Of a stretch of DNA of 64,000 nucleotides, positions 29,137-36,624 are shown one piece after another. Numbering within the stretch: position 1 is the first letter of the stretch; every line of letters starts with the position of its first letter. The position numbers and the translations under genes were made by a program. The DNA comes from Candidatus Latescibacterota bacterium (lineage in GTDB: Bacteria > Latescibacterota > UBA2968), in the NCBI GenBank assembly GCA_965222605.1, contig OZ244960.1:4096001-4160000 (forward strand), in the 5' to 3' direction. A model generated the notes under the pieces. The model did no database searches. It worked only from the letters and a program-made list of their open reading frames with translations, and was not told where the DNA came from.

Positions 29137-29694
29137 TTGGAACGTCATATATTTGTTTTTCTTGTTCTTCTTTTGATCGGTTGCGACGCACCCAAAACAG
29201 ATCGCGTATCGAATAAGGATCCGTACCTCATTCCTGCGACTGCAGAGGAGATTCTCAAGAATGTGAAAAATACCGATGCCAGGGTCGTTCTGGTCAATGT
29301 CTGGGCAACGTGGTGTCAACCATGTGTTGAAGAGTTTCCCGATTTGATGGCTGTTTATCAGCAGTACAAAGAACAAGGCGTAAAGCTCGTCTTTATTTCT
29401 GCCGATTTTGAAGGTCAGGCCGATGGCGCGATTGCCTTTCTCAAAGCGCAAGGTGTTGACTTTCCGAGCTATCTCAAGTTGAGGAGCGATAGGGCGTTTA
29501 TCAATACATTAGACCCCAACTGGTCGGGCGCAATACCCGCTACATGGTTATACGATAGCGAGGGCAATAAACGCTATTTTTGGCTCGGTAAGACCTCGCG
29601 CGAACAATTTGAGAAAAAAATACGCGATGTATTGATGGAGGGCGATCAGCAGTCAGGTCCCCCTTCATTCTTAAAGGCGAGAGGCGAGACGTGA
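29137..29694 (+). CDS. TlpA-like thiol-disulfide oxidoreductase lipoprotein
   Basis: LIGC lipobox, VNVWATWCQPC, WSGAIPAT. Confidence 0.9.
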   Translation: MERHIFVFLVLLLIGCDAPKTDRVSNKDPYLIPATAEEILKNVKNTDARVVLVNVWATWCQPCVEEFPDLMAVYQQYKEQGVKLVFISADFEGQADGAIAFLKAQGVDFPSYLKLRSDRAFINTLDPNWSGAIPATWLYDSEGNKRYFWLGKTSREQFEKKIRDVLMEGDQQSGPPSFLKARGET

Positions 29695-29842
29695 GAGTGA
29701 GAGGGCCTCACACAAAGACACAAGATGTGAGCAGCGAAACAGCCTGCCCTGAGTGCAGGGAATGGGTAAGGGATGCTTCAGCAGCCCATTCGAGAATCCA
29801 GACTACAGATACGCTCATACCACCAAATATCAGGAGGATTCC

Positions 29843-30454: not shown

Positions 30455-30471
30455 ATCAATAATTTCAAAAT

Positions 30472-30507
30472 ACCAAAAGCCACTTCAAAACGAGGTGGCT
30501 TTTGGTG
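30472..30507. terminator. Strong hairpin, probable intrinsic terminator
   Basis: ACCAAAAGCCAC...GTGGCTTTTGGT 12-bp perfect stem just after the thioredoxin gene. Confidence 0.7.
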
Positions 30508-30588
30508 TTCATGATATGTAGGAGCGGGTTCCAGTATTCGCATATCTTTGATTTCGATATCGGTGTGTCAATTCGCATAAGACAAGAA

Positions 30589-30632
30589 ATTTTCACAATA
30601 TTTTTGAAAATATTGTGAAAATGGAGTATTAT
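30589..30632 (+). promoter_or_regulatory. Sigma70-like promoter overlapped by 34-bp palindrome (candidate operator)
   Basis: ATTTTCACAATATTTT-TG-AAAATATTGTGAAAAT at 30589-30622; TTGAAA(30604)-17 nt-TATTAT(30627). Confidence 0.6.
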
Positions 30633-30697
30633 TTAATTAACCAATTATAAAAAGACAGAACGACGTACCGGATGTGTATTAAGAAAGGAACGACATT

Positions 30698-31212
30698 TTG
30701 AAATTTCAGACGAAAACCATTGGACGTTTATGTTCACTATTTAAACAGGGGCCAGACCCGATCTTGCTGCTTGGTGCCGGAGCTTCTGTTAAATCAGGTA
30801 TTCCTCCATCGGATGAATTGGTGGAAAAAATAGCCAAATGGGGATACTGTAACGAAAATAACTCTTCTCCCGCAGATCCGTATATACGGCGTAGCGACTG
30901 GTACCCTTGGCTAAAAAAACAGAACTGGTATGGTGAGGATAGGAAGCGAGCGGATAATTATCCTGATGCAGTTGATAACATTCTTCAACCCAGAGAAACT
31001 CGAAAAAAATTCTTTATGGAATTAATCAATCCTCAAGTTCCACCAAGCTCAGGGTACGAACGAGTGGCCGAACTTATGGCGCGAAAACGCATTCTTACCA
31101 TACTAACTACGAATTTTGATACAATTTTGCTGGACTTATGCAAGAGCAATAGTCGTCCCCACCATGTTAGTGTCATTCAGACTAAGTCTGACTTTACCAA
31201 AATCTCAACAAG
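30698..31212 (+). pseudogene. SIR2-like domain gene, 5' fragment truncated by IS256
   Basis: LLLGAGASVKSGIP and ILTTNFD motifs; frame runs into the IS left end before the expected xHG motif. Confidence 0.85.
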
Positions 31213-32645
31213 GACATTGTGCTTATCTTAGTTGAAATAGTAGAGGCTCCAATGTAAATTGGATACAGCAAATTCAAGCCAGAAAACGCTGTGTCCTCAA
31301 CCAAAGGAGCCCGTGATGAAAAAAGTATCGCACAACGCCCCCAAAGTCAAGGCCATCCACAAAGACGATGCAACGCCAGAGACACCCCTTGAAGAAGAGA
31401 TGAGCACCCTGGATACACGGATCGCGTTGATCCAAGCCTTGATTCCATTAGGATTAGACGCCGTGGCAGAAGAATTACAGAACGAAGTGACCCGCTTGGC
31501 CGGGCAGAGATACACACGCAAAGAGGGCCAAAATTCCAATCGTCGGTGGGGCAGTCAACAAGGCTCGGTGTATCTCGCCGATCAGAAAGTGCCTATCTCT
31601 GTTCCCAGGGTGCGTAATGTGGTGACCGATGAGGAAGCCTCCCTACAGACCTATCATCATCTCCAGCATCCCCGAAAGATGGATGAAGGACTGCTCCTTC
31701 GGATGATAAAAGGCATTGCCACACGCTCTTATCAAGAATGTGCCGAGACGGTACCGGAGGCCTTTGGGCTATCTTCATCCACCGTGTCGAGACGCTTTAT
31801 CAAGGCGTCGGCACAAAAGTTGAAGCAGTTTCAAAATCGGTCTTTAGCACAGTATGACCTCGTCGCCCTGTTTATAGATGGGAAGACCTTTGCAGATCAG
31901 GAGATGATCATTGCCCTTGGTGTGACTATAAAAGGCGATAAAATCCCGTTGGGCTTTGTCCAGGCCGCCACCGAGAACGAGCGCGTCTGTCGGCAGTTTA
32001 TACGGTCCCTCATAAATCGTGATCTGGTCTATCACAAGGGCCTGCTGTATCTTATTGACGGCTCAAAAGGCTTATATGCCGCTCTGACAAAGGCATTAGA
32101 TGGCTATGTGGTCATTCAACGTTGCCAGTGGCACAAACGAGAAAATGTGAGGGCCTATCTGCCCAAAGGCAAGCAAGATGAGATTAAAAAGGCCCTACAA
32201 AATGCCTACGGTCTGCTCACCTACAAAGAAGCCAAAGCTGCTCTTTATGCACTCAAACCCGAACTCACTTTGATCAATGAAGACGCGACAAAAAGCCTTG
32301 AAGAAGGACTCGAAGAAACCCTGAGCCTGCACCGCCTAAGACTCATGCCGCAGTTGAAGCAATCCTTTCGTACCACCAACTGCATTGAGTCCCTCAACTC
32401 AATGGTAGCGCAACTGACGAGAAATGTGAAGCGATGGACAAACTCGAATCAACGCACACGCTGGTTGGCCACTGCGCTGTTGGATATTGAACCGCGCTTG
32501 CGAAGGGTTAAAGGCTTCCGAAGCCTGCCCACGCTCAGGCGCGCGCTTCAAAAGGACTTGAAGATAGATACGGACTGGCAAGACGCGCTTGCTGCTGATT
32601 GAAACCACCGGCCTCGATTATTTCAACTAAAAATAGGACTTGACC
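31213..32645 (+). mobile_element. IS256-family insertion sequence
   Basis: Imperfect terminal IRs sharing TTAGTTGAAATA(g/a)T(a/c)GAGGC; single transposase; flanks (TCAACAAG / GAATAAAA) show no direct repeat. Confidence 0.9.
31316..32602 (+). CDS. IS256 (Mutator-like) DDE transposase
   Basis: VPRVR, LFIDGK, LIDGSKGL, QRCQWHK, RTTNCIESLN. Confidence 0.95.
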   Translation: MKKVSHNAPKVKAIHKDDATPETPLEEEMSTLDTRIALIQALIPLGLDAVAEELQNEVTRLAGQRYTRKEGQNSNRRWGSQQGSVYLADQKVPISVPRVRNVVTDEEASLQTYHHLQHPRKMDEGLLLRMIKGIATRSYQECAETVPEAFGLSSSTVSRRFIKASAQKLKQFQNRSLAQYDLVALFIDGKTFADQEMIIALGVTIKGDKIPLGFVQAATENERVCRQFIRSLINRDLVYHKGLLYLIDGSKGLYAALTKALDGYVVIQRCQWHKRENVRAYLPKGKQDEIKKALQNAYGLLTYKEAKAALYALKPELTLINEDATKSLEEGLEETLSLHRLRLMPQLKQSFRTTNCIESLNSMVAQLTRNVKRWTNSNQRTRWLATALLDIEPRLRRVKGFRSLPTLRRALQKDLKIDTDWQDALAAD

Positions 32646-32928
32646 GAATAAAACGACTACATATCTATTCACCACAGGTTACATGCCTGAATGGAGAACA
32701 TATCCTGGACCACACATTCCCGCTCCTGTTAGACTTGTGAGCAATGATGGGGCTGACCTGCACCGGGTTGCGTCGGATATTTTAGGGCTTGCACGCATGA
32801 ACTGGAATACTGCAAGCATCAACAATGCCCACCCGGTAACCCTCTTTTTTTCTCGGCGAGTCGGTGGCATCATGGCCGAAGTGGGAGAAGACCAGCAACC
32901 GCTTCCGTCCTTCCGTTATTATATGTAA
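32646..32928 (+). pseudogene. Prokaryotic Argonaute PIWI domain, 3' fragment
   Basis: Open from the IS end: YLFTTGYMPEWRTYPGPHIPAP...DILGLARMNWN...PVTLFFSRRVG...FRYYM*, the typical pAgo C-terminus. Confidence 0.85.
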
Positions 32929-33274
32929 AATCAACCTAATGGCATCAAAGCCGCTAAAAAATTTAAAAAAAGAACCAAACCGATTTCTTCCACCTTCGGC
33001 AGTAAAAGGGCCACATCCAAATCCTTAATCAAAGAACAACAATTCACTACGTTGTTCCCGATAAGAAATACAAGTTTACCGACTCATAAGAACAGGTTCG
33101 CGCAAGATACTATTGAAAAACGACAATATCCGTTTAAGCGCATCCTTTCACACACCCTCTGTTTATCGGCAAAATTTTGTACAAGACCTCTGATATTGTG
33201 TTATACGAAAAAATGCCGTATATATAAGCCGTGGAACAAAAAAGAAATAACAGCAAAGAAAGGAGGATGAGAAG

Positions 33275-33517
33275 ATGAGTGTATCATCTGCTTACCTGGA
33301 AATCATCGATTTTATTGCAGAGGGGATAACCCCCGAAGATTTGGTAGCTTTTCATCCATCTGAAACTGCCAAAAAGCAAGTCGCAGATCTGGTCTATCGC
33401 GAGAAAACAACAGGACTTACTGCAGAAGAGACGGCTGAACTCAATCATTATTTGGAACTTGAGCATCTGATGCGTCTTGCTAAGGCTCGTACTCGCCACT
33501 ATTTGAAAGATGAGTAA
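33275..33517 (+). CDS. Small helical hypothetical protein (antitoxin-like partner of HNH)
   Basis: AGGAGG RBS; 80 aa; 8-nt overlap with the HNH gene. Confidence 0.7.
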   Translation: MSVSSAYLEIIDFIAEGITPEDLVAFHPSETAKKQVADLVYREKTTGLTAEETAELNHYLELEHLMRLAKARTRHYLKDE

Positions 33518-33953
33518 AACCTATATCAGCGTTGCCTTGCGACAACTTGTGATAACACGCGCCATGGGGCTGTGCGAGTACTGCCTGATTCACGAAGATG
33601 ATGCCTATTTTGGATGCGAAATTGATCACATCATTAGTGTGAAACATGGCGGACCAACAGAAGATAGCAATCTGGCCTATGCGTGTTTGTTCTGCAATCG
33701 CAACAAGGGTAGTGACATTGGGTCTATCGTGAGACAAACGGGGCAATTTTGTCGTTTTTTTAATCCACGTATTGATCATTGGGCAGACCATTTCGCTTTG
33801 AACGGCGTGAGAATTGATACCCTTACAGAAATAGGCGAAGTGACTGCTCGTATTTTGGATTTCAATTATATAGACCGTTTAATTGAGCGTCAGGAATTGG
33901 AGACATTTGGCTATTATCCTCCTCCTGACGCTCTTATATTAATCTCAAGGTAG
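33510..33953 (+). CDS. HNH endonuclease
   Basis: CEYC...EIDHII..KHGG....NLAYACLFCNRNKG; FFNPR...WADHF. Confidence 0.92.
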   Translation: MSKTYISVALRQLVITRAMGLCEYCLIHEDDAYFGCEIDHIISVKHGGPTEDSNLAYACLFCNRNKGSDIGSIVRQTGQFCRFFNPRIDHWADHFALNGVRIDTLTEIGEVTARILDFNYIDRLIERQELETFGYYPPPDALILISR

Positions 33954-35349: not shown

Positions 35350-36624
35350 CTATTCGCGCAGTTCTTTTTTAAACACGACGACGCGATTGGTGTTTGTCCC
35401 TTTTTTTAAATTATCGACGCCCCAAACATTGGCGGTTTTGGTGAATTTTTGGTCGTTGATTAAGACCAGCAATGGCGTAAGTCCAGCTTCGATACCGCAC
35501 GGGATAACCGCTTCTTCGAGTTTGACTTTGCCGTGTCTGACTTCACCGACTTCAAAGGCGATATGTCCTCCGGGTTTCAAAACGCGCTCTAATTCGCGGA
35601 AAATCTTTGTCATTTCGCGTTGCCACTGCTCGACTTTTCTCGCCATGGTGATGGGAACAGCCGCGGGGTCTATCCCGCAAAACCAGCATCGCAACCAATT
35701 GTCCTGTGCGTAGTTGACGACATCGAGAAATGGTGGGGAGGTTATGACAAGGGCGATGGAGTTGGAGGCAATTTCGGGGACACTATGTGCTGGTTGGGTG
35801 AGGAATTGCGTTTGGGGAAAGACGCCTGTTAGGGTATGCCGAGTTTGTTCGTCGCAGTGTTTCAAAAGGGCGCGCGTTTTTTTTAAGATGAGGTTTTTGA
35901 CATCTCGCAATGGCGGTGCTTGATTTCTCTTCTGGTTGATTTTTTTTTGTGAATCAACGGAGACCGCCTGGTTAGGGGGCAGGGTATAAACGGAGAAAAA
36001 GCCGGATGAGTGACCCGTTAATCTGTTCATTGCGACCACGCGAAGCCATTGATCGATCCAGCTGCCGGTTTTTTCTTTAAGATATTTTTTTAAAGCACAA
36101 ATCTGCTTGAGGGTTTCCGGGTGATAAAAGACCCGTAGTTCTTCTGGATATTCATCGACATCTTCGAGTTCTATACGGGATAGTCTGTCGGCGACTTGAT
36201 CAATGGTGGGTGGATTCAGGCGGGGGAGCGTGAGGATTACACTCAATGGATTGACGTCGCATCCTATGGGAACGCGACCTAAAAGTGCGGATTCGATAAG
36301 TGTTGTACCCCGTCCGGCAAAGGGGTCATAAACCGCGTCGCCCGGTGTGGTTAATCGTTCGATAAAGAATCTGGGGAGTTGAGGCTTGAAGCACGCTCGA
36401 TATGATATTTCGTGGAGTGCGTTGGCCGCTCTTTGTTTTGAGGTCCAAAATTCGTTTATGTAAGTTTCAATGCGAACCCGCTCGCAATCAGTCGCGGCTT
36501 CCGTAGAAGTCACAATTGTATCTTTGCCGAATGCGTTGAAATCCGCCAATTCCCGTTTGAGCCTGTCAGATGCAGGGGATTTGGAGCGCGTGTTTATCAT
36601 TAATGTCAGTTGTTTTGCAGTCAT
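35350..36624 (-). CDS. Amino (N4-C/N6-A) DNA methyltransferase, orphan
   Basis: YRACFKP, DPFAGRGTT (motif I), TSPPF (motif IV), RVLKPGG. Confidence 0.85.
   Translation of the reverse strand: MTAKQLTLMINTRSKSPASDRLKRELADFNAFGKDTIVTSTEAATDCERVRIETYINEFWTSKQRAANALHEISYRACFKPQLPRFFIERLTTPGDAVYDPFAGRGTTLIESALLGRVPIGCDVNPLSVILTLPRLNPPTIDQVADRLSRIELEDVDEYPEELRVFYHPETLKQICALKKYLKEKTGSWIDQWLRVVAMNRLTGHSSGFFSVYTLPPNQAVSVDSQKKINQKRNQAPPLRDVKNLILKKTRALLKHCDEQTRHTLTGVFPQTQFLTQPAHSVPEIASNSIALVITSPPFLDVVNYAQDNWLRCWFCGIDPAAVPITMARKVEQWQREMTKIFRELERVLKPGGHIAFEVGEVRHGKVKLEEAVIPCGIEAGLTPLLVLINDQKFTKTANVWGVDNLKKGTNTNRVVVFKKELRE

Follow-up and report, generated by a model that had tools for sequence, protein, structure and literature searches.

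A SIR2-GHKL-APAZ/short Argonaute module reduced to its two ends by an IS256-associated deletion in a Candidatus Latescibacterota genome

Among the nearest relatives of the locus analysed here are SPARSA systems such as the Geobacter sulfurreducens GsSir2/Ago pair (PDB 8in8, 8jkz and 8y80), in which a two-gene operon encodes a SIR2 effector with a C-terminal APAZ domain and then a short prokaryotic Argonaute (pAgo) of the MID-PIWI type; according to one report, NAD+ hydrolysis by GsSir2 requires residues N142 and H186 (PMC11452484). A longer kind of partner appears in the catalogue of Ryazansky et al. 2018 (PMC6299218), which gives og_40 as SIR2_1 fused with Schlafen, with APAZ, in short-pAgo operons and places 13 SIR2 proteins in APAZ group IIb. 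A 2026 preprint (10.64898/2026.05.29.728809) describes SLFN-APAZ proteins paired with short pAgos and, under the name "Schlatpase", a Schlafen+GHKL module of the SLFN-pAgos that also occurs in Poribacteria. No experimental work on the SIR2-GHKL-APAZ/short-pAgo form was found in the literature searched. Here we describe what remains of a module of this form in a 64,000-nucleotide stretch of Candidatus Latescibacterota DNA (assembly GCA_965222605.1, contig OZ244960.1, positions 4,096,001 to 4,160,000; "the window" below, to which all positions refer). From 30698 to 32928 it holds the 5' stump of a SIR2-APAZ-type partner gene, one insertion sequence (IS) of the IS256 family and the 3' stump of a short pAgo gene, as follows:

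30698..31212, + strand: SIR2-GHKL-APAZ partner remnant, codons 1-171 plus 2 bases (PADLOC, identity to protein P0121, blastn)
31213..32645, + strand: IS256-family element of 1,433 bp, chimeric (Pfam, inverted repeats, six other full copies)
32646..32928, + strand: short pAgo remnant, the last base of codon 403, codons 404-496 and the stop, a PIWI C-terminus (PADLOC, identity to protein P0001, blastn)

An earlier note on this DNA had described it as a SIR2/pAgo defence locus gutted by an IS256-associated deletion, a reading whose main lines hold and whose subtype has to be corrected. The left remnant is the beginning of an open reading frame (ORF) of 177 amino acids (aa) at 30698-31231, with a TTG start, whose product begins MKFQTKTIGRL and includes LLLGAGASVKSG and ILTTNFD, and whose frame continues into the IS until a stop at 31231. 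The SIR2-type N-terminus that the earlier note had recognised by its GAGAS and TTNFD motifs is confirmed by PADLOC: residues 9-171 of the stump correspond to positions 3-165 of the 876 of Aga_SIR2-PNTD1-PNTD2 (PDLC02402) with an E value of 3.4e-68. Residues 1-171 of P0121 (568 aa, with a SIR2_2 domain) are 100% identical to the stump, and comparison with P0121 puts the break after effector codon 171 (...KIST/S...). A database search for longer proteins with the 5' fragment returned 409 relatives; against proteins of 914-950 aa the stump is 60-73% identical. By its sequence, then, the SIR2 N-terminus belongs to the SIR2-Schlafen/GHKL-APAZ partner subfamily (PDLC02402/PDLC02418). The remnant retains the GAGAS cofactor loop and Asn139 (in TTNFD) and ends at T171, 11 residues before the catalytic His182, which is absent from the stump. 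The intact allele has both N139 and H182, which a phmmer alignment to chain 8jkz_A equates with N142 and H186 of GsSir2. The stump also lacks everything that follows in SIR2, as well as GHKL and APAZ.

The right remnant occupies an open frame that runs from 32647 and closes with a stop codon at 32926-32928 (NKTTTYLFTTGYMPEWRTYPGPHIPAP...ILGLARMNWN...HPVTL...FRYYM and stop). The earlier note had taken it for the last ~93 aa of a PIWI domain directly after the right inverted repeat, and PADLOC bears this out, the 93-aa piece corresponding to positions 364-455 of the 455 of pAgo_I (PDLC02376; E 2.5e-31). It is 100% identical to residues 404-496 of P0001, a protein of 496 aa that itself matches pAgo_I at E 3.6e-148, and by comparison with P0001 the break precedes pAgo codon 404 (...CTV/NKTTTY...). 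A search for longer proteins with the 3' fragment returned 327 relatives. Homology to the PIWI C-terminus extends over 32647-32925, and the alignment of P0001 with chain 9om4_B reaches its last residue. Of a complete MID-PIWI protein (~450-510 aa, without N or PAZ domains) 93 of 496 residues are left in the window; the intact P0001 aligns end to end with pAgo_I profiles of 455 and 493 aa and with solved short pAgos of 471-507 aa. The only start-to-stop ORF that remains of the pAgo is one of 81 aa (32683-32928), the length at which the earlier note expected the fragment to be annotated. The profile check that the note proposed gave a divided answer: Pfam is weak on the partner stump (SIR2 E 0.065, SIR2_2 E 0.2) and has no match to the 3' piece, while PADLOC is decisive for both. 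Pfam as the sole identifier was accordingly rejected, as it would miss both remnants; PADLOC and database searches are needed. With the catalytic His, GHKL, APAZ, MID and the greater part of PIWI lost, the two remnants cannot function.

How much has been lost? A scan of species-representative genomes gave 21 related loci, 19 of them in Candidatus Poribacteria, one in an "uncultured bacterium" (L043) and one in Christiangramia. Nineteen of these hold both parts, and in every one of them the left and the right remnant match a single locus in the same orientation, which gives the co-occurrence that the earlier note's reading called for. The blastn alignment of the left remnant stops at 31212 in 15 of the 19, and that of the right remnant begins at 32646 or 32647 in 13 of the 21. 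In intact loci the distance between these two points is 3,418 bp (L035), 3,439 bp (L039) or ~3,448 bp (L033); since the remnants align up to 31212 and from 32646 in such loci, about 3.4 kb is missing here. We are confident, to the point of little remaining doubt, that the locus carries a real, IS-associated 3.4-kb deletion of a SIR2-GHKL-APAZ/short-pAgo module.

Both genes are complete and free of stops in 16 of the 21 loci; a contig end cuts two others, the partner is frameshifted in one (L048) and two have an internal deletion (L043 and L053). In the complete loci the partner has 880-940 aa and the pAgo 492-496 aa, and an APAZ region with a pAgo gene directly downstream is present in 16 of 16; APAZ is absent from the window. 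The earlier note had allowed two genes or a fusion. The two-gene arrangement is the one found, with overlapping ends: the partner's 3' end overlaps the pAgo start by 17 nucleotides (nt) in L033, the sole locus whose ORF stop was read. The partner's SIR2 domain occupies residues 22-304 and is related to GsSir2 (E 1.9e-14), and between SIR2 and APAZ lies a middle region of ~300 aa, which matches HATPase_c_4 below threshold (24.4 bits, cut-off 26), touches PDB 3lmm and in the relatives has no match to AlbA_2 (Schlafen). The predicted fold of this region, from a 16-sequence alignment and of medium confidence (pLDDT 74.8), matches best 3lmm, the protein DIP2311 (Foldseek E 8.8e-8, prob 1.00, with modest TM-scores of 0.47/0.31), and then histidine-kinase ATP-binding domains. 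The model suggests a GHKL-type module, the Schlafen half of which is putative.

Is this a SPARSA system, as the earlier note supposed? The two remnants are the ends of a SIR2-effector/short-pAgo operon, and to that extent the likeness stands, in domain order as well as in the aligned catalytic residues. The partner here, however, has 914-923 aa against 584-587 aa in SPARSA, the difference being the ~300-aa GHKL/Schlafen-type module, and the intact relatives do not show a SPARSA-type partner, namely one of ~580 aa with APAZ directly fused and of the GsSir2-APAZ clade. Their APAZ region (residues 613-840) matches HNH-APAZ, restriction-endonuclease-APAZ and DUF4365-APAZ proteins and not GsSir2-APAZ; the match to HNH-APAZ chain 9om4_A has E 3.7e-15 over 613-830. 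Among solved chains the pAgo scores highest with 9om4_B (E 1.8e-75, 257 bits), then with the SPARTA/SPARDA Argonautes (E 1e-42 to 1e-49) and with GsAgo (8in8_C) at E 7e-26, the placement being one by scores against solved chains and PADLOC profiles. The short pAgo/HNH-APAZ pair (PDB 9om4) is thus the best solved relative of both pAgo and APAZ, and differs in that its effector is HNH where the present one is SIR2+GHKL. Given the partner's length and GHKL insert, and given that by score pAgo and APAZ alike resemble nuclease-APAZ systems more than the Geobacter chains, the system is not a canonical SPARSA pair; the window copy differs further in being destroyed.

The earlier note thought that the intact allele might be an uncharacterised SIR2-pAgo variant. 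Its architecture, however, is one already catalogued bioinformatically, by Ryazansky et al. 2018 as og_40 and in the PADLOC models. The full-length partner P0122 aligns with the whole of PDLC02402 (1062 bits) and, over 151-904, with PDLC02418 (Aga_SIR2-Kinase-PNTD1-PNTD2). The domain order is the same as that of og_40, APAZ group IIb and PDLC02402/PDLC02418, with og_40 matched by its description in that text; it differs from the description in that Pfam AlbA_2 was not detected in these partners and HATPase_c_4 was detected below its cut-off. The contigs of P0121 and P0001, of 29,073 bases each, are likely the same contig. P0217, P0220 and P0222 (562-564 aa) were considered as a recurrent truncation of the partner and rejected: they have another architecture and share the SIR2 N-terminus alone.

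The IS between the stumps has an intact transposase frame (31259-32602, 447 aa, probable ATG at 31316), which matches Pfam Transposase_mut (PF00872; E 1.6e-34, profile positions 34-371 of 379). Its terminal inverted repeats, within 31219-31247 and 32611-32639, are 29 nt long, imperfect and 79% complementary. Alignment of six other full copies sets the ends at 31213 (GACATTGTGC...) and 32645 (...GACTTGACC), so the IS256 element that the earlier note had placed between the stumps is there, with its left end about 5 bases further left. Those six copies, 84-94% identical to it, lie together with fragments in both orientations in the same genome, which is that of a sponge symbiont of Poribacteria type and forms one 6.34-Mb contig. 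A Mutator-type DDE transposase, a length of ~1.4 kb, imperfect terminal repeats and 8-9-bp target-site duplications at most copies are all as in the IS256 family; the transposase is, however, only 30-41% identical to plasmid relatives annotated as IS256-family, and the window copy differs in having no duplication and a chimeric sequence. Its flanks, TCAACAAG and GAATAAAA, share no target-site duplication, as the earlier note had observed. Clean 8-9-bp duplications flank four of the six other full copies (GTTGTTTC, AGGCGAAG, AGACGAGGA and AGCGGGAA); of the remaining two, one has none (L004) and one has an imperfect one (L007). The copy without a duplication (L004, at G000:C1:310738-312200) may mark another IS-associated rearrangement in the chromosome.

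Over alignment columns 209-714 the window IS has one difference from copy L002, compared with dozens from the other copies, and a 34-bp insert is missing from both. From column 1246 onward, as far as its right end, the window IS shows no difference from L003/L004 and 31 from L002. The last ~220 bp are therefore of the L003/L004 type and the preceding ~1,000 bp of the L002 type, with a sharp switch near column 1246, and the window IS is a chimera of two IS lineages.

How might the deletion have arisen? We favour the following course. The cassette that holds the module would have been inserted between a thioredoxin-like gene and a gene pair encoding an 80-aa protein and an HNH endonuclease, a step suggested by the empty sites in relatives (below). 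Two diverged resident IS256-family copies would then have inserted as direct repeats, at effector codon 172 and at pAgo codon 403, and homologous recombination between them would have removed the 3.4 kb and left one chimeric IS without a duplication; the missing duplication and the mosaic IS are the grounds for these two steps. Simple insertion is ruled out by the lack of a shared duplication. The earlier note had named adjacent deletion and recombination between two IS copies as alternatives, and the chimeric IS fits the second. In the adjacent-deletion scheme, a single IS that had landed in one of the two genes would have removed the DNA between itself and the second breakpoint, whether through intramolecular transposition or through an aberrant one-ended event. 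This would likewise leave one IS without a target duplication, and it does not need the parental two-IS allele, which appears in none of the 21 loci or the contigs examined; it leaves unexplained, however, why the last ~220 bp resemble L003/L004 and the preceding ~1,000 bp L002. IS256 transposes by copy-out/paste-in via a circular intermediate, and frequent adjacent deletions are not known from that route. We therefore consider adjacent deletion unlikely, though a serious competitor, and prefer recombination between two IS copies, which we hold to be probable. A literature search on IS256 and the loss of defence systems returned general or unrelated papers only.

A plain deletion followed by an IS landing exactly on the scar has a precedent of sorts in L043, where an IS-free deletion spans the same gene junction. 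We consider it very improbable, as it requires a positional coincidence and as a normal insertion would have given an 8-9-bp duplication (as at four of the six other copies), where none is present; the missing duplication counts against insertion into an older scar just as it does against simple insertion.

The deletion could also be an artefact in which the assembly has collapsed two IS copies and the interior is still in the chromosome. The IS does occur in at least 7 full copies, and the interior is present in the samples of two public runs (X17 and X19; below). On the other hand the genome is a single 6.34-Mb contig, and unitigs of three public runs from two studies (X15, X17 and X19) join each flank to an IS end. 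On the left, contigs pass without mismatch from the flank into the IS, to 31253 (X15), 31239 (X17) and 31242 (X19); on the right they begin within the IS, at 32617 or 32618, and continue into the unique flank. Left and right depths agree (69.8/62.1, 31.8/29.6 and 23.9/21.9, respectively), and no junction between an IS end and the interior was recognisable among the loose ends listed. The earlier note had proposed mapping reads across the IS ends, and with both flanks leading into the IS in all three runs we judge an artefact to be highly improbable. Stretches of the IS that no long contig matched are uninformative, and so is run X1 (a small share of the words). That the interior was moved and not lost, by an inversion or translocation between IS copies, is conceivable in a genome with several of them in both orientations; its probability is negligible given that six-frame searches of the 6.34-Mb genome with the full P0001 and P0122 found the missing interior nowhere else and gave no second piece. 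The pAgo query matched by its residues 403-496 only, and the partner query had 11 matches, the remnant and ten weak middle-domain paralogues (E 6.5e-7 to 1.8e-3). The earlier note's statement that the interior is gone thus holds for this genome.

The note had also suggested looking for an uninterrupted subpopulation. In X17 and X19 one contig agrees with the window from position 32646 on, and the letters ahead of that point translate to ...PPRRGTLCTV (followed by NK...), that is, an uninterrupted pAgo across 32646. It differs from P0001 in one residue (T for L) and may derive from a neighbouring strain; from this contig, a whole allele, or a close strain with one, coexists with the deleted form in these samples. 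In X15 a further contig (depth 12.8) joins 30990 to 32659 and skips 1,668 bases, the shorter side having 42 letters; it is perhaps a second deletion form, a relative or a chance join.

Taken as a whole, the reading of this locus as a dead two-gene SIR2-GHKL(Schlafen-type)-APAZ plus short-pAgo module, with recombination between two IS copies as the route, seems to us reasonably probable. Several points tell against it. Copy L007 is itself mosaic, with an imperfect duplication, and gene conversion also yields mosaic copies without any deletion; for this reason the chimeric IS is suggestive of recombination and not proof of it. Copy L004 is also without a duplication, so the missing duplication is not unique to this site. 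None of the 21 loci and no contig shows a parental insertion, be it the IS at codon 172 by itself or the one at codon 403 by itself. The unitigs, being de Bruijn contigs that end inside a repeat, cover just 27-41 bases of the IS at its left end and 28-29 at its right end, and the X15 left contig is the only one that passes a 31-base bridging rule. The closest partner allele, P0121, ends at residue 568 through an apparent frame slip at a G-run, to be explained by real damage of another sort or by a fault of the assembly. Finally, NADase activity, guide use and defence are predicted for the long-partner family by analogy.

By that analogy, with the solved SPARSA and related systems, the pAgo/APAZ heterodimer of the intact module would load a small guide, binding of complementary invader DNA would release the SIR2 domain and let it oligomerise, and SIR2 would hydrolyse NAD+, leading to growth arrest or death of the cell (abortive infection).

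Two other deletions are seen among the related loci. In L043 partner codon ~191 is joined to pAgo codon ~154 with no filler and with a loss of 2,644 bp relative to L039; in L053 partner codon ~572 is joined to pAgo codon ~340 with ~2,034 bp lost, and at the scar (L053 9831-10015) is a filler of ~185 bp that resembles a miniature inverted-repeat transposable element (MITE) and has terminal inverted repeats TAGGACTTACGCA/TGCGTAAGTCCTA. The window locus brings to three the independent deletions that cross this gene junction, each with its own breakpoints: one has a chimeric IS256 copy, one a MITE-like filler and one a plain microhomology join. The pattern is notable, but it comes from a small sample and from metagenomic contigs. 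The partner frameshift of L048 lies near codon 215-220. The inner hairpin motif of the L053 filler (GGTGCGGTTTCTAACCGCACC) recurs several times in L035, L048, L042 and L034.

The earlier note had proposed that the loss serves to silence a toxic system, and it may do so. Recurrent independent decay in relatives is compatible with selection against toxicity and also with ordinary turnover of defence genes, and the three same-junction deletions are a pattern suited to testing selection against autoimmunity. A more far-reaching idea, which we regard as a long shot, is that the long SIR2-GHKL-APAZ/short-pAgo module (common in Poribacteria) is an ATP-gated NAD+-depleting Argonaute variant with an unusually high autoimmune cost. 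If so, this cost would explain the repeated disarming, in which the effector's regulatory half and the Argonaute's guide-binding half are lost at one stroke, and comparing the window locus with its whole sister allele, after and before the loss, would offer a natural way to measure it. IS-mediated loss of a defence locus is in itself an ordinary outcome, and the system is of a known kind; the case is unusually cleanly documented. It gives a dated example of IS-driven loss, and it points to a well-populated and experimentally untouched short-pAgo subtype with whole genes in 16 loci. Annotation pipelines would label the remnants two hypothetical proteins, and recognising them keeps a defunct system from being counted among the defences of this genome.

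The event is recent, since the remnants are 100% protein-identical to the whole allele and since X17 and X19 hold the uninterrupted pAgo contig. For the same two reasons, the identical whole allele and the uninterrupted contig in the same runs, presence or absence of the system is a current polymorphism in sponge-symbiont populations.

The stumps and the IS lie in a cassette that now spans 30455-33259 (2,805 bp), whose outer parts are as follows:

30455..30697, + strand: upstream non-coding part of the cassette (read from the sequence; promoter by consensus match)
32929..33259, + strand: downstream non-coding part of the cassette, ending just before the ribosome-binding site (RBS) of the 80-aa gene at 33275

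The SIR2/pAgo cassette is present at this site in none of 20 same-genus genomes, in which the flanking genes are conserved, and 32929..33259 is absent from all 20 save for one 27-base match. In four of them (G020, G017, G007 and G008; the letters were read for the first three) the homologue of 30454, the stop of the thioredoxin-like gene, is followed by 3 bases and then by the homologue of 33260, the RBS of the 80-aa gene. G014 has at the same point a 185-bp insert with inverted ends (GTTTTAAAAT...ATTTTAAAAC; L065, G014:C1:1766230-1766414). In eleven others the match runs through a stem-loop to ~30515 and then directly to the PhyH-type gene (34023), the 80-aa/HNH pair being missing. Because it is absent from these 20 genomes and its flanking genes are conserved in them, the cassette is taken to be a lineage-specific insert at a variable site, and a recent one, given that the remnant proteins match a whole allele at 100% identity. 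The same-genus genomes were rejected as a source of the intact allele, as they contain no orthologue; in six of the 20 there is some match to pAgo, of 28-38% identity. A comparison with the surroundings of the 21 related loci was likewise tried and set aside: neither the DNA nor the ten flanking proteins match beyond the two genes, save for weak oxidoreductase paralogues, so the relatives' flanks cannot delimit the mobile unit. The point after the thioredoxin-like stop (30454/30455), which holds nothing, a 185-bp element (G014) or the cassette, has the look of a minor hotspot for insertions, close to which there is neither an integrase nor a tRNA.

Within the upstream part, a stem-loop follows the thioredoxin-like gene at ~30470-30506, a perfect 14+14-nt palindrome (TTTCACAATATTTT/AAAATATTGTGAAA) lies at ~30590-30622, and a promoter-like site (by consensus match only) lies at 30604-30632. 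The palindrome, a possible operator, overlaps this promoter-like site ahead of the SIR2 partner gene. The related loci, whose alignments begin at 30671-30698, do not share it. Downstream, the 80-aa gene overlaps the gene for a 147-aa HNH endonuclease (33275-33953; Pfam HNH E 8.3e-12, and weakly PtuB-like in PADLOC, best E 3.5e-7), a pair that is itself variable: 5 same-genus genomes have it at this site and 11 lack it. About 2.4 kb downstream, on the minus strand at 35350-36624, is a gene for a type II DNA methyltransferase of 424 aa (PADLOC MTase_II PDLC03325, E 1.2e-172; Pfam N6_N4_Mtase). On the other side, between two thioredoxin-like genes, a stretch of ~30-45 nt (29687-29731) has dozens of 90-100% matches in its own and same-genus genomes and is probably an intergenic repeat resembling repetitive extragenic palindromic (REP) sequences.

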